A program made the position numbers and the translations under genes. A stretch of 64,000 bases of DNA from an uncultured Pseudomonadota bacterium (lineage in GTDB: Bacteria > Oederibacteriota > Muellerivitia > Muellerivitales > Muellerivitaceae), in assembly GCA_963770835.1 (NCBI GenBank), contig CAVYRH010000004.1:448001-512000 (forward strand), written 5' to 3'. The notes below the pieces were generated by a model. That model saw only the letters and a program-made list of their open reading frames with translations, ran no database searches and was not told the DNA's origin. Numbering within the stretch: the first letter of the stretch is position 1; each line of letters begins with the position of its first letter. Shown here piece by piece: positions 36,408 through 59,735 of this stretch.

Positions 36408-36863
36408 TTGCCCCACCTCCATGAAAAGATCGACTTCACGGTTTCCATCTTCATTGTGAAGGACCGCAAGGTCCTATTCATCTTTCACAAACAGCTGAAC
36501 CGCTGGCTGCCCATCGGGGGGCATATCGAGCTGGACGAGAACCCCGAACAAGCGGCGCTCCGGGAAGCCAAGGAAGAAAGCGGCTTGGATGTGGAGCTGG
36601 TGGGGGATATGCCGCCTTTAAAAGCGGAGGTGGGTTTTGTCCCCCTTCTTTGCCCCGCTTATATGGATATTCATCTCATCAAGGAACCCCATTGGCATAT
36701 CGGGATGGTTTATTTCGCCCGGGTGAAGTCCGGCGAAGTCACCTTGAACGCCCAGGAACACACGGACATCCGGTGGATGACTGAAGAGGATCTGGACGAT
36801 CCGAACTGGGAGTTGTACGCCAACCTGAAGTTTTACGCGCGAGAAGCCTTAAAAAAGTTGTGA
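36408..36863 (+). CDS. NUDIX hydrolase
   Basis: 'GGHIELDENPEQAALREAKEESGL' Nudix box. Confidence 0.9.
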   Translation: MPHLHEKIDFTVSIFIVKDRKVLFIFHKQLNRWLPIGGHIELDENPEQAALREAKEESGLDVELVGDMPPLKAEVGFVPLLCPAYMDIHLIKEPHWHIGMVYFARVKSGEVTLNAQEHTDIRWMTEEDLDDPNWELYANLKFYAREALKKL

Positions 36864-37038
36864 GTTCTTAGTGTTGAGTTTTGTCCCACATCTTTTTTTG
36901 AAAAGAACAGATGGTGTGTGGGACTATACCGATCTCTTTAGAATTTTTATTGAAAGATCGGCATGAGTTGATGAAAGTTTTCAATCTTCGATTGAAAACC
37001 ACCTTCATTTAAAATTAAGAATTCAAAACTAAAAATTC
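36856..37038. repeat. Inverted heptamer-array element (AGTTTTG-type ... AACTCAA-type) with internal hairpins
   Basis: Left AGTTGTG AGTTCTT AGTGTTG AGTTTTG; right ATTTAAA ATTAAGA ATTCAAA ACTAAAA. Confidence 0.65.
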
Positions 37039-37578: not shown

Positions 37579-37666
37579 AATTTTTAACTCTAAATTTTGA
37601 ATTGTGGTGATTTCCGCGGAGCGGAAATTTCAATTATTTAAAATTAAAAACTTAAAATTCACAACT
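37579..37666. repeat. Inverted heptamer-array element with central hairpin
   Basis: ATTTTTA ACTCTAA ATTTTGA ATTGTGG ... ATTTCCGC-GGA-GCGGAAAT ... ATTTAAA ATTAAAA ACTTAAA ATTCACA. Confidence 0.65.
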
Positions 37667-44151: not shown

Positions 44152-44256
44152 GGTTTAAATTCTAAGTTTTGAATTTTGAGTCTTTGAAAAAATCCCATTG
44201 ATTAAATCAATGGGATTTTTCCTTAACTCAACACTAAAAACTCATAACTCATAACT
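44152..44256. repeat. Inverted heptamer-array element enclosing a palindrome
   Basis: GGTTTAA ATTCTAA GTTTTGA ATTTTGA ... AAAAATCCCATTGATT-A-AATCAATGGGATTTTT ... AACTCAA CACTAAA AACTCAT AACTCAT. Confidence 0.75.
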
Positions 44257-54267: not shown

Positions 54268-54296
54268 CCTTTCGGTAGTGTTTTAGTTTGAATAAT

Positions 54297-54432
54297 TCCC
54301 CACTTTGAAAAAGGGGCCTCTCGGTTTTGAGGGTACACAGGGGGTTTTCCCTGTGAGAGCCTTTGGGGAGGGGGGTATTAGTCTTTAACAACAAGGCTAA
54401 CTCCCCCTTAATCCCCCTCTTTCAGAGGGGGA
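54297..54432. repeat. REP-like palindromic element (CCCC.CTTT..AAAGGGG type) with nested hairpins
   Basis: TCCCCACTTTGAAAAAGGGG ... TCCCCCTTAATCCCCCTCTTTCAGAGGGGGA. Confidence 0.6.
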
Positions 54433-54517
54433 AAAAGAAAACACACCATCAAACTGATACACCACCAGCCTTTCCTTTCGGTGGAAAAACCCCGCTTAAG
54501 GCATCAAAATAGGGCCA

Positions 54518-56044
54518 ATGGCTCCTCCCAACCCGCGCGGCGTTCCGGCCTCGGATGAAAAGCCCCACTATTTCTTTTCCCGCTGGCTGTTCCTGAAGAT
54601 TTTGGCCCTGGCCTACCTGGCAGCCTTTGGCTCCCTTTGGCTCCAAGTGGACGGCCTGATCGGCGAAAAGGGAATCCTGCCCGCAGCCTCCTTCCTCAAC
54701 GCCGCCCGGGAACAATGGGGGCCGGCCGCCTTTTGGGGTGTTCCCACAATTTGCTGGGCGGGTGCCGGAAACGGTTTTCTCCATTTTCTTTGCGGCGGAG
54801 GGGTGGTACTCTCCGTCCTTCTCTTTTTCGATTTCGTTCCGGTGGCCTGCCTGGCCTTGCTTTGGGTTTTTTACCTGTCGTTAGTTTCGGTGGGGCAGGA
54901 TTTCCTGGCCTTCCAATGGGACAACCTGCTTTTGGAAGCCGGGCTTTTGACGGTTTTCGCCACGCCCCTCCAATGGCGCCTGGGGCGGGACAGCCGCCTG
55001 CCGTCCTCCGGCCTTATTCTTTTCCTCTTCCAGTGGCTCTTGTTCCGGCTGGTGTTCGGGTCGGGCATGGTGAAACTCACCAGCGGCGACCCCACTTGGA
55101 GGAACTTGACCGCCCTGGAATACCACTATTGGACACAGCCCATCCCCCCCCTATCCGCCTGGTTCATAAGCCAACTGCCGGCCTGGTTCCAAAAACTTTC
55201 CTGCCTTTTCATGTTCGGAGCGGAACTGCTCGCGCCTTTTTTGATCTTCGGACCCCGCAAACTGCGGCCTTGGGCCTTCCTGCTAATGGCTTCCCTCCAA
55301 GCCTTTATCCTGCTCACGGGCAACTATTGCTTTTTCAACTACCTCACGCTGGGGCTTTGCCTTTTCGCGCTCGAGGACGCGGCCTGGCCCGGTTGGTTCG
55401 AGCGGTGGTGGGAATCCAAACCGGAACCCGAAAAGGGGCCCGCCTTCCGGTGGCCCTCCTGGATCGTCATCCCCTTCGCGGCTGTGGCGATCTATATGAC
55501 GGCCCTTCAAATGTCCTACTCGATTGGGTTGCGTTTCCAGTGGCCTTCCTGGACTATGGGCATTTACCGGGCCCTGGACCCCTTGCGGTCGTTCAATTCC
55601 TACGGCCTGTTCGCGGTGATGACCACCTCGCGGCCCGAGATAACCGTAGAGGGAAGCGACGACGGAATCCTATGGAAGCCCTACGGTTTCAAATGGAAGG
55701 CCGGGGATTTAAACCAGTCGCCGCATTATGTCGCCCCCTACCAGCCGCGGTTGGACTGGCAGATGTGGTTCGCCGCCCTGGAAAGCCCACAGGAAAATCC
55801 CTGGTTCCTGAATTTCCTGGTCGCGCTCCTGCAAGGCAGTCCGGACGTTTTAGGCCTTTTGAAAGAGAACCCCTTTCCGGACCGGCCGCCCAAGTTCATC
55901 CGGGCGGAAGTTTATGATTATCATTTCACGGATTTCGCGGAAAAAGCCAAAACGGGGAATTGGTGGAAGTCCGAATACGTGGGCCCCTATCAGAGGCCTT
56001 TTTCCCTCGACCAAGTCCGGCTTGAGGGGGGAAGCCCCCATTAG
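54518..56044 (+). CDS. Lipase maturation factor family protein
   Basis: 'FQWDNLLLEAG', 'LEYHYWTQP', 'TGNYCFFN', 'PYQPRLDWQMWFA'. Confidence 0.92.
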   Translation: MAPPNPRGVPASDEKPHYFFSRWLFLKILALAYLAAFGSLWLQVDGLIGEKGILPAASFLNAAREQWGPAAFWGVPTICWAGAGNGFLHFLCGGGVVLSVLLFFDFVPVACLALLWVFYLSLVSVGQDFLAFQWDNLLLEAGLLTVFATPLQWRLGRDSRLPSSGLILFLFQWLLFRLVFGSGMVKLTSGDPTWRNLTALEYHYWTQPIPPLSAWFISQLPAWFQKLSCLFMFGAELLAPFLIFGPRKLRPWAFLLMASLQAFILLTGNYCFFNYLTLGLCLFALEDAAWPGWFERWWESKPEPEKGPAFRWPSWIVIPFAAVAIYMTALQMSYSIGLRFQWPSWTMGIYRALDPLRSFNSYGLFAVMTTSRPEITVEGSDDGILWKPYGFKWKAGDLNQSPHYVAPYQPRLDWQMWFAALESPQENPWFLNFLVALLQGSPDVLGLLKENPFPDRPPKFIRAEVYDYHFTDFAEKAKTGNWWKSEYVGPYQRPFSLDQVRLEGGSPH

Positions 56045-56084
56045 GGTTGAGCGCCGCTCAATACTTCCGCGTTTAGGAGTCACT

Positions 56085-56729
56085 TTGTTTCAAAAAGACT
56101 ATTGGGAAAGAAAGTCGCTGGAAGACCGGCGGCCGCCGGAACACCCGGTGGTGCGGCAATATGCCCTCTCCAAGATCGAACAAATCCGCCGGTATGTGCC
56201 GCTGGATAAAAACACCCGGCTCTTGGATGTGGGATGTGGAAACGGCTTTTTCTCCCACCCTTTCAGCCAAATCTGCGACACGGTAGGCGTGGACTATTCG
56301 GAAAAAATGCTGGCCAAGAACCCCATCCCCCAGAAGCTGCTGATGGAAGCGGGCCATCTCTCTTTCCAGGATTTTGCCTTCGACGTGGTCTTCTGCCACG
56401 CTTTACTGCACCATGTGGAGGATATGGACAAGGTGCTCCTGGAAATGAGGAGGGTCACCCGAAAATGCGTCGTCGTCATGGAACCCAACCGCAACAATCC
56501 CCTGATGTTCCTTTTTTCCGCCCTTGTCCCCGAGGAACGGCGGGCCTTGAAGTTTTCGATGGAATTTTTAAAAGGGAAAATGGCCCAAAATGGGTTGAGG
56601 GTGACCGCGGCTTTTTCGCACGGAACCACCGTTCCGAACAAAACGCCGGCCTTCTTGCTGCCGCTGATGAGGTTACTGGACTTCAATTACCCGCTGGGGA
56701 TGACGAACATTCTTATCGCTGAACGGTAG
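56085..56729 (+). CDS. Class I SAM-dependent methyltransferase
   Basis: 'LLDVGCGNG', 'FDVVFCHALLHH', 'EPN'; TTG start after AGGAG. Confidence 0.88.
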   Translation: MFQKDYWERKSLEDRRPPEHPVVRQYALSKIEQIRRYVPLDKNTRLLDVGCGNGFFSHPFSQICDTVGVDYSEKMLAKNPIPQKLLMEAGHLSFQDFAFDVVFCHALLHHVEDMDKVLLEMRRVTRKCVVVMEPNRNNPLMFLFSALVPEERRALKFSMEFLKGKMAQNGLRVTAAFSHGTTVPNKTPAFLLPLMRLLDFNYPLGMTNILIAER

Positions 56730-56820
56730 TCGACGGTCGACAGTTCACGGTCCACAGGAACGGCCAAGAGTCCCGCGACTTAATCGTGCTGCCGACCGTG
56801 GACTGTCGACTGTGGACTGT
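56728..56820. repeat. Inverted heptamer-array element (GTCGAC/GTCCAC type)
   Basis: AGTCGAC GGTCGAC AGTTCAC GGTCCAC ... GCCGACC GTGGACT GTCGACT GTGGACT. Confidence 0.75.
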
Positions 56821-57481
56821 TTTTGGCGGTTTCGATCCGGTGCAAAAGCTCCCGCAGGCTCAAGTCGGCCATGGACTCGATGCGGTAGTCGGCGTGATCC
56901 AGGTTCAATTGGGCCGTCACCGGGTTAGGTACGGCCACGCAATAAATGCCGGCCGCCCGGGCAGCCTTGATGCCATTGGGGGAATCCTCGAAGGCGACAG
57001 CCCGGTCGGGCGAGACTCCCATGAAGGTCAGGGTGAGGTCGTAAAGTTCGGGATGGGGTTTCACCTTCTCCACGTCGTTGGAAGTCCGGATGGAATGGAA
57101 TAACTCGGCCAGTCCCAGGCGGGAGAGGAGGCCCACGACCCAGTCCTGGTCGGAGCTGGAAGCCACCGCCAGGGCGATTCTCAGTTTCCGGGCCTCCTCC
57201 AAGTAATCCAGGACGCCGGGGCGGGGTTCGAGCCCTGAAATAAGTTCTTGTTCCCTTTTGCGGAAGACCCGCTTTAATTCCGCCCGGTCCAACGGGCGGC
57301 CCAATTGATTTTCCAGGTAGTCATAAACATCGAAAGCGTGGTGGGAGGTGCCGATACATTGGCCCCAAACGGAGATGGGCAATTCCACCCCGAAAGAGCG
57401 GTAAATTTCCGTCCAATTTTGGAAGGCTGCGCTTTCCGTATCCAAGATAAGGCCGTCGAAATCGAAAATAAGGAGGTCCAT
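56780..57481 (-). CDS. HAD-superfamily phosphatase (IA variant 3)
   Basis: 'FDFDGLILDTE', 'VASSS', 'KPHP', 'FEDSPNG'. Confidence 0.92.
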   Translation of the reverse strand: MDLLIFDFDGLILDTESAAFQNWTEIYRSFGVELPISVWGQCIGTSHHAFDVYDYLENQLGRPLDRAELKRVFRKREQELISGLEPRPGVLDYLEEARKLRIALAVASSSDQDWVVGLLSRLGLAELFHSIRTSNDVEKVKPHPELYDLTLTFMGVSPDRAVAFEDSPNGIKAARAAGIYCVAVPNPVTAQLNLDHADYRIESMADLSLRELLHRIETAKNSPQSTVHGRQHD

Positions 57482-57491
57482 TGAAAAGCCT

Positions 57492-57671
57492 AGTTTTGCG
57501 TTATGAGTTTTGAGTTCTAAGTTTATGAAATTTTCAATCCTTGAATTGAAAATGGTTCATAGATTACACGGTTTTTCTTTGTTGCAATGAAAAATAATCT
57601 CAAGAAGTTGTTTATTCTAAAGATTAAACAACTTTCCATAACTCAACACTTAGAACTCAAAACTCAGAACT
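57492..57671. repeat. Inverted heptamer-array element enclosing several hairpins
   Basis: AGTTTTG CGTTATG AGTTTTG AGTTCTA ... AACTCAA CACTTAG AACTCAA AACTCAG. Confidence 0.8.
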
Positions 57672-57723: not shown

Positions 57724-58515
57724 ATGACCATCGAAACCAGGAAGAAGCCCGTCGTGTTGGACGTTGAAAATGTCACCTTGTCCTTCGGAGGACTGGTAGC
57801 GGTCGATAATTTTTCCATGGTGCTCCACGAGGGCGAGTTGTCGGGTTTGATCGGCCCCAACGGGGCCGGCAAAACCACGGTTTTCAACATCCTTTCCGGC
57901 ATCTACCGGCCCCAACAGGGGGATGTGCGGGTGTTTGGAAAACCGATCCTGGGCTTGAAACCCCACCAAATCACCCAGCGGGGCTTGGTGCGGACCTTCC
58001 AGAATATCCGCCTCTTTAAGGAACTCACAGTCGAGACCAATATCAAGGTGGCCTTCCACCATGCCCATCCCTACGGCATCGGCGCGGCACTGGCCCAAAC
58101 CCAGCGCTTCGAGGACGTGGAAAAAGCCTTCGACGAGGAAACCGGCCGCCTCATGGAAGTGCTGGAATTGACCCACCGCAAGGGGTCCCTGGCGGGCGCC
58201 CTGCCCTATGGGGACCAGAAGAAAGTGGAGATCGCCCGGGCCCTGGCCACGGGCGCCCAAATCCTTCTTTTGGACGAGCCGGCCGCCGGCATGAATCCCC
58301 AGGAATCCCAATGGCTCATGCAGGTCATCCAGCGCATCCGAAAGGAATTCAACCTTTCGGTGCTTTTAATCGAGCACGATATGAGGGTGGTCATGGGCAT
58401 CTGCGAGAAGATTTACGTGATGGACCACGGCATCAAGATCGCGGAAGGGTCTCCCAAAGAAATCCAGGAAGATCCGAAAGTCATCGAGGCCTACCTTGGA
58501 ATCAAGAAAAAATAG
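57724..58515 (+). CDS. livG: Branched-chain amino acid ABC transporter ATP-binding protein
   Basis: 'FGGLVAV', 'GPNGAGKTT', 'RTFQNIRLF', 'LLLDEPAAG', 'IEHDM'. Confidence 0.92.
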   Translation: MTIETRKKPVVLDVENVTLSFGGLVAVDNFSMVLHEGELSGLIGPNGAGKTTVFNILSGIYRPQQGDVRVFGKPILGLKPHQITQRGLVRTFQNIRLFKELTVETNIKVAFHHAHPYGIGAALAQTQRFEDVEKAFDEETGRLMEVLELTHRKGSLAGALPYGDQKKVEIARALATGAQILLLDEPAAGMNPQESQWLMQVIQRIRKEFNLSVLLIEHDMRVVMGICEKIYVMDHGIKIAEGSPKEIQEDPKVIEAYLGIKKK

Positions 58516-58989
58516 TTATGAGTTTTGGGTTTTTAGTTTTGAGTTGTGGTGAAAAGCCTGACGGTTTTTCCTTTTTTTAAAACTTAGGAAAAGTCACTAA
58601 TGAAAAGCATTGTTAAAGAAAAAAGTTTTAGTTTTGCCCTGGCGATAATTCAGCTATATCAAAGACTAAAACGCAAGAATGAGATTGTTTTATCCAAACA
58701 ACTTCTCCGAAGCGCGACCAGTATTGGGGCCAATGTTGAAGAAGCTTTAGCAGGGCAAAGCCGAAAGGATTTTCTTTCCAAGATGTCCATCGCCTCTAAA
58801 GAAGCCAGAGAAACTTGTTATTGGCTGCAGTTAATGAATGCCTCGAAGTTTGAAGGAGAAAATTATGCGCCATTGTTAGAAAAGGCCCAGGAATTGAAGA
58901 GGATGTTGACTTCTATTGTTAAGACAACAAGGGAAAAATCGGATGATTTTTGACCCTAACTCAAAACTTAGAACTCAAAACTCAAAACT
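58514..58989. other. Four-helix-bundle gene cassette bounded by inverted heptamer arrays
   Basis: Left arm 58514-58548 (AGTTATG AGTTTTG GGTTTTT AGTTTTG AGTTGTG); right arm 58958-58989 (AACTCAA AACTTAG AACTCAA AACTCAA). Confidence 0.8.
58600..58953 (+). CDS. Four helix bundle protein (23S rRNA IVP-like family)
   Basis: 'LSKQLLRSATSIGANVEEA...SRKDFLSKMSIASKEARETCYWL'. Confidence 0.92.
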   Translation: MKSIVKEKSFSFALAIIQLYQRLKRKNEIVLSKQLLRSATSIGANVEEALAGQSRKDFLSKMSIASKEARETCYWLQLMNASKFEGENYAPLLEKAQELKRMLTSIVKTTREKSDDF

Positions 58990-59012
58990 GATGCCGCGTT
59001 GAGGACAACCAA

Positions 59013-59735
59013 GTGAACTCAAGCTTATTAGAAATCAAGGACTTAACCGTATTCTACGATGCCATCCAGGCGTTGCGGGGAATCAGTCTGAGTGTCCCGA
59101 AGGGCTCCATTGTCTGCCTCATCGGCGCCAACGGGGCGGGGAAATCCACCGTTTTAAAGACCATTTCGGGAATCAAACGGTCCAGCGGCGGTGAAATCTT
59201 GTTCAACGGACAGGCTATTACCAGTTTTGCTCCCCACACCTTGGTCAAGATGGGCATTGTCCAATGCCCTGAAGGACGGGGGGTGTTTCCCAACTTGACG
59301 GTTGAGGAAAACTTGGACTTAGGGGCTTACGTGCGCCATGACCAGCCGGAAATCAAGAAGGATCTAGATCACGTTTATTCACTTTTCCCACGGTTGAAGG
59401 AGCGGTACAAGCAGGCTGCGGGGACCCTCTCCGGCGGGGAACAGCAAATGCTGGCCATCGGCCGGGCGCTCATGGCCCGTCCCCAACTCTTGCTTTTGGA
59501 TGAGCCTTCCTTGGGGCTCGCCCCGCAGGTCATCGAACTGATTTTTGACACGATTCAAAAAATCAATCATGAGGGAACCACGGTCCTCTTGGTGGAGCAA
59601 AATGCCCAACTCGCCTTAGAATCTTCCTCCTACGCTTATGTCCTTGAAACGGGTGAAATCATTTTAGAAGGGGAGGCCGCTAAGGTTTTGGAGAATCCCA
59701 AGGTTAAACAAGCTTATCTGGGACAGACGGTTTAG
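59013..59735 (+). CDS. livF: Branched-chain amino acid ABC transporter ATP-binding protein
   Basis: 'GANGAGKST', 'PEGRGVF', 'LSGGEQQML', 'DEPSLGLAP', 'VEQNA'. Confidence 0.92.
   Translation: MNSSLLEIKDLTVFYDAIQALRGISLSVPKGSIVCLIGANGAGKSTVLKTISGIKRSSGGEILFNGQAITSFAPHTLVKMGIVQCPEGRGVFPNLTVEENLDLGAYVRHDQPEIKKDLDHVYSLFPRLKERYKQAAGTLSGGEQQMLAIGRALMARPQLLLLDEPSLGLAPQVIELIFDTIQKINHEGTTVLLVEQNAQLALESSSYAYVLETGEIILEGEAAKVLENPKVKQAYLGQTV

Follow-up and report, generated by a model that had tools for sequence, protein, structure and literature searches.

The window analyzed here is a stretch of 64,000 nt from the genome of an uncultured Pseudomonadota bacterium (GTDB lineage Oederibacteriota; assembly GCA_963770835.1, hereafter G000) and corresponds to positions 448,001 to 512,000 of contig CAVYRH010000004.1 (C4). 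Within it, the genes livG and livF, whose products were recognized by profile search as ABC ATPases with the branched-chain C-terminal motif, are separated by an insert of 500 nt (window 58513-59012; borders set by comparison with the empty junctions of relatives) that contains one intact gene of the family PF05635/TIGR02436, the cargo gene, between inverted arrays of a short repeat unit. The G + C content of the insert is 38.2%, compared to 56.8% for livG and 52.4% for livF. The locus contains the following features:

57724-58515, + strand: livG, ABC ATPase, with its TAG stop codon (58513-58515) inside the first repeat unit of the insert (open reading frame (ORF) list, profile search)
58514-58548, + strand: left array of five AGTTTTG-like heptamers (sequence, inverted-repeat and motif searches)
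58549-58577, + strand: inner, non-repeat part of the left arm, with a T run after a terminator-like hairpin (58551-58570) (inverted-repeat and terminator search)
58586-58593, + strand: AGGAAAAG, the likely ribosome-binding site of the cargo gene, 7-14 nt 5′ of its ATG (read from the sequence)
58600-58953, + strand: cargo gene, encoding a four-helix-bundle protein of 117 aa (PF05635/TIGR02436; profile and structure matches)
58926-58954, + strand: inner part of the right arm, complementary to 58549-58577 and overlapping the last codons of the cargo gene (inverted-repeat search, fold)
58955-58989, + strand: right array of five CAAAACT-like heptamers, the reverse complement of the left units (sequence, motif search)
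58990-59012, + strand: spacer of 23 nt outside the arms, not present in empty junctions, with GAGGA (59001-59005) 8 nt 5′ of the livF GTG (sequence, junction comparison)
59013-59735, + strand: livF, ABC ATPase, intact, with a GTG start codon (ORF list, profile search)

The left units read AGTTATG, AGTTTTG, GGTTTTT, AGTTTTG and AGTTGTG, the first of them overlapping the livG TAG, and the right units CCTAACT, CAAAACT, TAGAACT, CAAAACT and CAAAACT. This agrees with a preliminary description of the locus, made from the sequence alone, which had noted an AT-rich gene of 117 aa between livG and livF, five AGTTTTG-like units starting inside the livG stop codon and "four-plus" units on the right; the latter had been counted in the AACTCAA frame, and five are found in the CAAAACT frame. 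The statement that no transposase or reverse transcriptase lies inside the cassette is likewise in line with the ORF list and the profile search. For AGTTTTGAGTTTTG, allowing up to two mismatches, 20 matches were detected in the window where 0.44 were expected, and none of 100 shuffled sequences gave more than 3, so that a chance origin of the heptamer arrays is excluded. The inverted repeat extends beyond the arrays, resulting in arms of 64 nt each (58514-58577 and 58926-58989) that are 77% complementary, the right one covering the final 28 nt of the cargo ORF. The insert supplies the stop codon of livG and, with GAGGA, a Shine-Dalgarno-like site before livF. No sigma-70-like promoter was found on the + strand between 57400 and 59100. 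In and near the cassette, an Rfam search with E-values up to 1 gave nothing but a chance match to a snoRNA; at the gathering score, the window and two loci with a structured element described below (L013 and L150) yielded only two tRNAs, and no rRNA was found in the window.

LivF was searched in 30 relatives and the junction was inspected in 19 of them, leaving out the more distant loci L021, L023 and L025-L028. In two of the three other genomes of the same genus, G001 and G003, the livG TGA overlaps the livF start codon (ATGA/GTGA) and no insert is present; the empty junctions read AAAAATGA in G003 and AAAAAGTGA in G001. Between the flanks shared with these junctions, G000 carries its 500 nt, TAGTTATGAG...GAGGACAACCAA. 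The third genome, G002, has an insert of 32 nt, which begins with TAGTT as in G000 and forms a mini-hairpin of 6 bp. The gene is therefore not always carried at this site by relatives, as could be expected for the small mobile or intervening cassette proposed in the preliminary description. Further inserts were found at the same junction: a gene-less hairpin of 74 nt with AGTTTTA/AGTTCTA units, beginning at a TAG, in G008; a degenerate element of the AATTAGG type in G005; an insert of 206 nt in G007, most of which is a structured element of another family (z = -4.95 for a 212-nt fold); and a cassette of 518 nt in G006 with arms of three CACCAAG and three CTTGGTG units. The cargo of the latter is a GxxExxY/PDDEXK_3 protein (PF13366, E 9.1e-43; TIGR04256, E 1.7e-43). 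Four soil runs from three studies (X1, X2, X3, X6) gave contigs that carry the insert of G000 wherever they cover the site. A joint that goes back in these contigs corresponds to the sister hairpin at 57637-57671, and the one joint that skips 58545-58959 was not counted as an empty site, its shorter side comprising only 24 letters and lying within repeats.

Some additional observations were made at this junction. In G017 there is an insert of 433 nt with an ORF of 136 aa (L014:1094-1504) and no repeat arms; the ORF matched nothing in Pfam, NCBIfam or PADLOC. In the more distant G021 (L028), the matches to LivG and LivF lie about 1.1 kb apart. The structured element of G007 (L013) has a counterpart in G002 (L150, C69:55480-56140); the part common to both, about 190 nt long with GTCATTGCGAGGAG ... 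CCTCGCAACGAC as its ends, is strongly structured and gave no Rfam match. In G002, it belongs to an extra stretch of about 460 nt between the counterparts of the window ORFs 54518-56044 and 55914-56729. Upstream of the first of these ORFs, window positions 54270-54470 gave dozens of matches with 76-100% identity across G001 and G002; this repeat family contains G/C-rich palindromes.

The cargo protein was assigned to its family by profile searches with PF05635 (E 2.6e-25, 89.1 bits at a cut-off of 33.8, profile positions 3-106 of 106), the only match in the Pfam search, and with TIGR02436, "four helix bundle protein" (E 2e-30, 105.2 bits at a cut-off of 24); PADLOC gave no match. All five columns that are invariant among 22 aligned relatives are kept. 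The closest solved relative is 2rld_A (phmmer E 1.7e-26), from an entry deposited with five chains. An AlphaFold2 model of the protein has four helices (mean predicted local distance difference test score, pLDDT, 94.4) and could be superimposed with Foldseek on the 2RLD chains with TM-scores of 0.81-0.90; 2GSC was matched as well. A relationship to Avd, the accessory protein of diversity-generating retroelements, had been pointed out in the preliminary description. It stands at the level of the fold, as the Avd chains 4DWL and 8UB7 were matched, more weakly, with TM-scores of 0.65-0.69, but the sequence search does not reach Avd. The PF05635/TIGR02436 family has very many members, and we know of no function for it outside diversity-generating retroelements.

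The only other strong PF05635 gene of G000 (C3:121575-121880) is 61% identical to the liv cargo and lies in a second cassette (C3:121508-121996) flanked on both sides by AGTTCGA-type arrays. At the corresponding site, G001 and G003 have an intact ATGA overlap. The cassette is inserted exactly 5′ of this overlap (...GCTT|TAAAGTTCG...CTTCAAACT|ATGA...) and begins with the stop codon TAA; TA is found on both of its sides and once in the empty site. In G002, about 230 nt of the ORF are deleted while the arms and the untranslated parts are kept, and this copy is a direct case of a full cassette decaying toward a gene-less form. On the same contig, positions 97304-98338 consist of about 1 kb of pure T followed by an A run, which is probably an assembly artefact.

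Gene-less hairpins with related arms were found throughout G000. A scan for 7-nt periodicity revealed 94 arrays, compared to 16 in a shuffled copy of the genome, and for 42 of them an inverted partner was found with a score exceeding that of each of the 94 random controls. These merge into 36 elements with units of the types AGTTTTG/AATTTTG, CAGTCGA, AATTAGG, AGTTCGA and TTAGCTG. A pattern search for the AGTTTTG/AATTTTG type alone gave 36 candidates, a few of them doubtful; around 30 are gene-less, and only the liv cassette holds a gene. The gene-less copies of this type measure 60-180 nt and contain a small hairpin at their centre, frequently TTTCCGC-N4-GCGGAAA. In the window, the following hairpins, to which no strand was assigned, were annotated:

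36856-37037: gene-less element with AGTTTTG-type arms and small inner hairpins
37593-37666 (C4:485593-485666): gene-less hairpin with AATTTTG-type arms and a central TTTCCGC/GCGGAAA hairpin
44158-44256: gene-less hairpin with AGTTTTG/AATTTTG-type arms (motif and pattern search)
56727-56822: gene-less hairpin with CAGTCGA-type arms, beginning at the TAG of ORF 55914-56729
57492-57671: gene-less hairpin with AGTTTTG-type arms between a HAD-like gene and livG, not present in G001, G002 and G003

All of these except 56727-56822 carry the AGTTTTG-type unit, so that the "empty" members of the family, which the preliminary description had reported from the window, could be located. G002 and G003 also have the hairpin at 56727-56822, whereas it is missing from G001, where the convergent stop codons are 4 nt apart; no target-site duplication was seen at 56727. 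The reading frame of the HAD-like gene (56780-57481, - strand) extends into the right arm of this hairpin, and the protein tail NSPQSTVHGRQHD derives from repeat units and loop; the HAD-like protein of G001, in which the hairpin is missing, ends with ...IETSKTEA. Many bacterial genomes contain short tandem-repeat palindromes, for which, to our knowledge, there is no explanation.

Within the phylum, 65 of 99 genomes yielded a PF05635 match. For a survey of the gene flanks, 32 loci were used, one from each of 30 relatives and two from G000, of which 31 could be scored. For this, the 160 nt 5′ of the gene were aligned to the reverse complement of the region from -30 to +190 nt around the end of the gene match, and 114 mock windows displaced within the same loci served as controls. 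Real and mock windows could not be told apart by the RNAduplex energies of the 200-nt flanks, so the local alignment score was used instead. 24 of the 31 loci scored above every mock. A second sample was obtained across phyla by a pattern search with an alignment of 10 sequences, which gave 80 loci, 79 of them evaluable, and was compared with 146 mocks; it represents one PF05635 subgroup, which is not that of the window's own protein, the kin in it are not independent, and at least two loci occur in both samples. The loci span Acidobacteriota, Nitrospirota, Planctomycetota, Verrucomicrobiota, Bacteroidota, Chloroflexota, Omnitrophota, several proteobacterial groups and others. In total, 70 of the 79 loci scored above the 95th percentile of the mocks and 58 above all of them. 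The survey suggested in the preliminary description thus revealed in both samples a strong enrichment of inverted short-period arrays next to homologues. The heptamer as defining unit proved too narrow: the period of the upstream flank was 7 nt in 28 loci, 8 nt in 16, 9 nt in 15 and 10 nt in 2, with no period in the remaining 18. A periodic upstream flank is hence present in 61 of the 79 real loci, compared to 18 of the 146 mocks at any lag (128 aperiodic). Among the 58 strongly armed loci, 36 have an ORF in the same orientation, with 80 or more codons, whose stop codon falls between -25 and +10 nt relative to the outer end of the left arm. The design is furthermore shared by three GxxExxY/PDDEXK_3 genes of G000 (C10:46909-47259, C19:396972-397313 and C26:870675-871013), each of which lies between inverted arrays of a unit of its own (CACAGAG-, GGATGAA- and GACGCCGA-like, two of them with a 9-nt period). 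In the literature search, which did not extend to most subscription journals, no paper was found on PF05635 or GxxExxY genes within inverted short-repeat arrays outside rRNA.

The pairing of the arms was analyzed on a stretch of 496 nt, which folds with the arms paired (z = -3.70 for the + strand RNA, -3.81 for the - strand RNA and -3.55 for DNA). In none of the three folds was the real stretch equalled by any of 100 shuffled sequences, and the arms therefore pair better than shuffled controls, as the preliminary description had supposed. A hairpin will form in any single strand that carries the arms. In the liv cassette, the sense arms pair better than the antisense arms (-72.3 vs. -55.8 kcal/mol, with 9 G-U pairs). 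When the order of the units was shuffled in one arm, the match dropped slightly (mean z 0.43; 28 loci above zero, 16 below), and a mirrored order of the unit variants was individually significant in 3 of 47 loci, which is a weak signal.

We consider it fairly probable that window 58513-59012 is an insertion cassette, missing in close relatives, in which a PF05635 gene is carried between inverted AGTTTTG-like arrays, and that it represents a likely selfish, insertable unit of the kind of the intervening sequences (IVS) in 23S rRNA. As judged from the compared sequences, the assignment to small insertable cassettes of the IVS kind is well supported. The cassette would enter as DNA at gene ends, especially before overlapping stop/start junctions. 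Because no promoter-like site was found inside it, transcription of the cargo gene likely depends on read-through from the host operon. In the transcript, the arms would fold into a long hairpin, which, by analogy with the rRNA IVS, might be cut by RNase III.

Several results weigh against this reading. A stem maintained for the sense transcript should have arm mismatches that favour G-U over A-C, but 41 G-U and 66 A-C mismatches were counted in sense orientation in 24 loci of the phylum, and 139 and 155, respectively, in 58 cross-phylum loci, so that neither sample has a G-U excess. In addition, the - strand RNA and the single-stranded DNA fold as well as the sense RNA. Selection on the arms at the level of the sense RNA is not supported, nor do the mismatch counts lend support to a looping out of the cargo by arms paired in vivo, as proposed in the preliminary description, and due to the missing G-U excess the complementarity of the arms looks like a property of the DNA. 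Since there is no wobble excess and the order of the units is only weakly mirrored, the arms act for the most part like two oppositely oriented arrays of a single unit. They would more likely act at the DNA level, as end structures or as arrays of binding sites, than as a selected RNA stem. As regards transcription, the terminator-like hairpin with its T run (58551-58570) between livG and the cargo gene could limit read-through. As regards mobility, no target-site duplication was seen at the liv site, and a duplication like the TA of the second cassette is found neither there nor at 56727, which leaves no consistent rule. G000 contains no near-identical second full copy, its two genes being 61% identical, and no reliable empty-site joint, and with it no sign of ongoing excision, was detected in the four soil runs. 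Furthermore, the hairpin at 44158-44256 is common to G002 and G003, with matches running unbroken across it, and some such elements are therefore old and can be stable.

Three other explanations have to be weighed against an IVS-like insertion cassette. The arms might be arrays of binding sites, in DNA or RNA, for the cassette's own protein, which would join the ends or regulate the cassette, with pairing being secondary; we regard this as a serious, albeit unlikely, possibility. Subterminal repeat motifs in some transposons are a model for arms of this kind. The missing G-U excess and the weak mirroring would fit such arrays, a conserved core with a period varying from 7 to 10 nt fits sites better than a stem, and unit types go along with protein groups: CAGTCGA-like units accompany the ...SVPSNIAEGK group, 9-nt GTTTATAA-like units the ...SVMSNIAEGF group (L042, L050, L051) and GTTCAA/GTTTCA cores the protein group of the cross-phylum sample, and the GxxExxY cassettes carry units of their own. 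However, if gene and arms are inherited together, this correlation would arise without any binding; related loci were not treated separately, and duplicates occur among the loci (L041 = L071, L045 = L079). G000, moreover, has hairpins of the CAGTCGA type, yet no gene of the matching subgroup was found.

The hairpins themselves could be primary, as elements of the repetitive extragenic palindrome (REP) or miniature inverted-repeat transposable element (MITE) kind, the gene being a passenger that landed in the loop of a pre-existing gene-less hairpin. The roughly 30 gene-less hairpins of the AGTTTTG type against one full copy in G000 point in this direction, as do the gene-less hairpin of an AGTTTTG-like type at the livG-livF junction of G008 and the central small hairpins of the gene-less copies, which are unrelated to the cargo. 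We nevertheless think this improbable, as arms accompany the gene in 58-70 of the 79 cross-phylum loci with units that vary by locus, which would be hard to get by repeated landing. The complementarity also extends beyond the arrays into the end of the ORF, the second cassette in G002 is a full copy losing its gene, and thus a change in the opposite direction, and the two divergent Y1-transposase genes of G000 have no array flanks. Very improbable, in our view, is an immobile host device, i.e., an attenuator, terminator or mRNA-stability element that sets the livG:livF ratio, with the gene as a normal resident. It would agree with the terminator-like hairpin and T run inside the insert, with the new Shine-Dalgarno-like site before livF and with the presence of the insert in contigs from the four soil runs. 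The insert is absent in two of the three same-genus genomes, though, unrelated inserts occupy the site in other genera, its G + C content is 38%, and loci of the same design lie next to unrelated genes in many phyla. Both its distribution among relatives and its foreign composition argue against such a device.

The liv locus ties together the PF05635 family and the short tandem-repeat palindromes, with clean comparative evidence: filled and empty junctions within one genus, different cassette types at the same junction across genera and a full copy losing its gene. It also illustrates how two translationally coupled genes can take up an insert between them and stay intact, the insert bringing its own stop codon and a new ribosome-binding site. 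Only as a tentative proposal, which we hold to be rather doubtful, the PF05635 and the GxxExxY cassettes might together form one undescribed class of minimal mobile elements, the ends of which are arrays of 7-10-nt binding sites read by their own small protein. Such elements would insert at gene ends with a stop codon of their own, ride on host transcription and decay to gene-less hairpins, and the IVS of 23S rRNA would be the special case located in rRNA. If mobile, this class would be among the smallest gene-carrying elements known and would explain the origin of the rRNA intervening sequences.

Among known systems, the REPs and the REP doublets forming hairpins (REPINs) with their REP-associated tyrosine transposases (RAYTs) consist of short intergenic palindromes in tens of copies and a gene enclosed by inverted copies of these repeats. 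The elements of G000 are similar in both respects, but differ in that the enclosed gene does not encode a Y1 transposase. G000 is rich in mobile elements. It has 11 Y1-transposase matches, nine of them near-identical and of the IS200 type and two divergent, none of which adjoins the cassette; a link to RAYTs was rejected because the two divergent genes lack such array flanks. In MITEs and transposons, some of which carry several protein-binding repeats in each end, the terminal inverted structure, the many gene-less copies, the presence/absence among relatives and the decay of a full copy have counterparts here. In the liv cassette, by contrast, there is no transposase domain; no consistent target duplication was seen, and the two full copies of G000 are not near-identical. 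No matching transposase was found, the cargo being PF05635 only and the Y1 genes being unlinked to the arrays (other transposase families were not searched). The GxxExxY/PDDEXK_3 cassettes (TIGR04256, PF13366) are built in the same way, a single small gene being enclosed by short-unit arrays in inverted orientation, whereas their cargo has a nuclease-like fold and their units (CACCAAG etc.) are different, some with a 9-nt period.

With Avd of the diversity-generating retroelements (4DWL, 8UB7) the cargo protein shares the four-helix bundle, and the resemblance of PF05635 to Avd is also stated in the relevant part of PMC10053308. Unlike in the case of Avd, no reverse transcriptase gene adjoins the cargo gene, the neighbours being livG and livF (template and variable repeats were not searched). 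In total, 18 RVT_1 matches were obtained in G000, 11 of them with identical scores in frames of 458 aa, and none adjoins the cassette; the nearest one on C4 is located at 580639, while the window ends at 512000. A link to these retroelements was rejected because the reverse transcriptase is not near the cassette.

The closest parallel is provided by the ORF-bearing IVS of 23S rRNA in Coxiella burnetii (helix 45) and Leptospira. According to the passages of PMC4990558 on the Coxiella IVS, it has 428 nt, contains an S23p ORF with two to three tandem heptamers 5′ of it and ends in a terminal stem that is cut by RNase III; its former mobility is put forward there as a hypothesis only. Cleavage by RNase III is demonstrated for the IVS, whereas for the liv cassette it would follow by analogy. 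Unlike the IVS, the liv cassette is located between protein-coding genes and gives a stop codon to the upstream gene. As far as the IVS are covered by these passages, both kinds of element have in common a PF05635 ("S23p") gene in about 430-500 nt, complementary ends that form a long stem around the ORF, tandem heptamers 5′ of it and a presence that varies among relatives.

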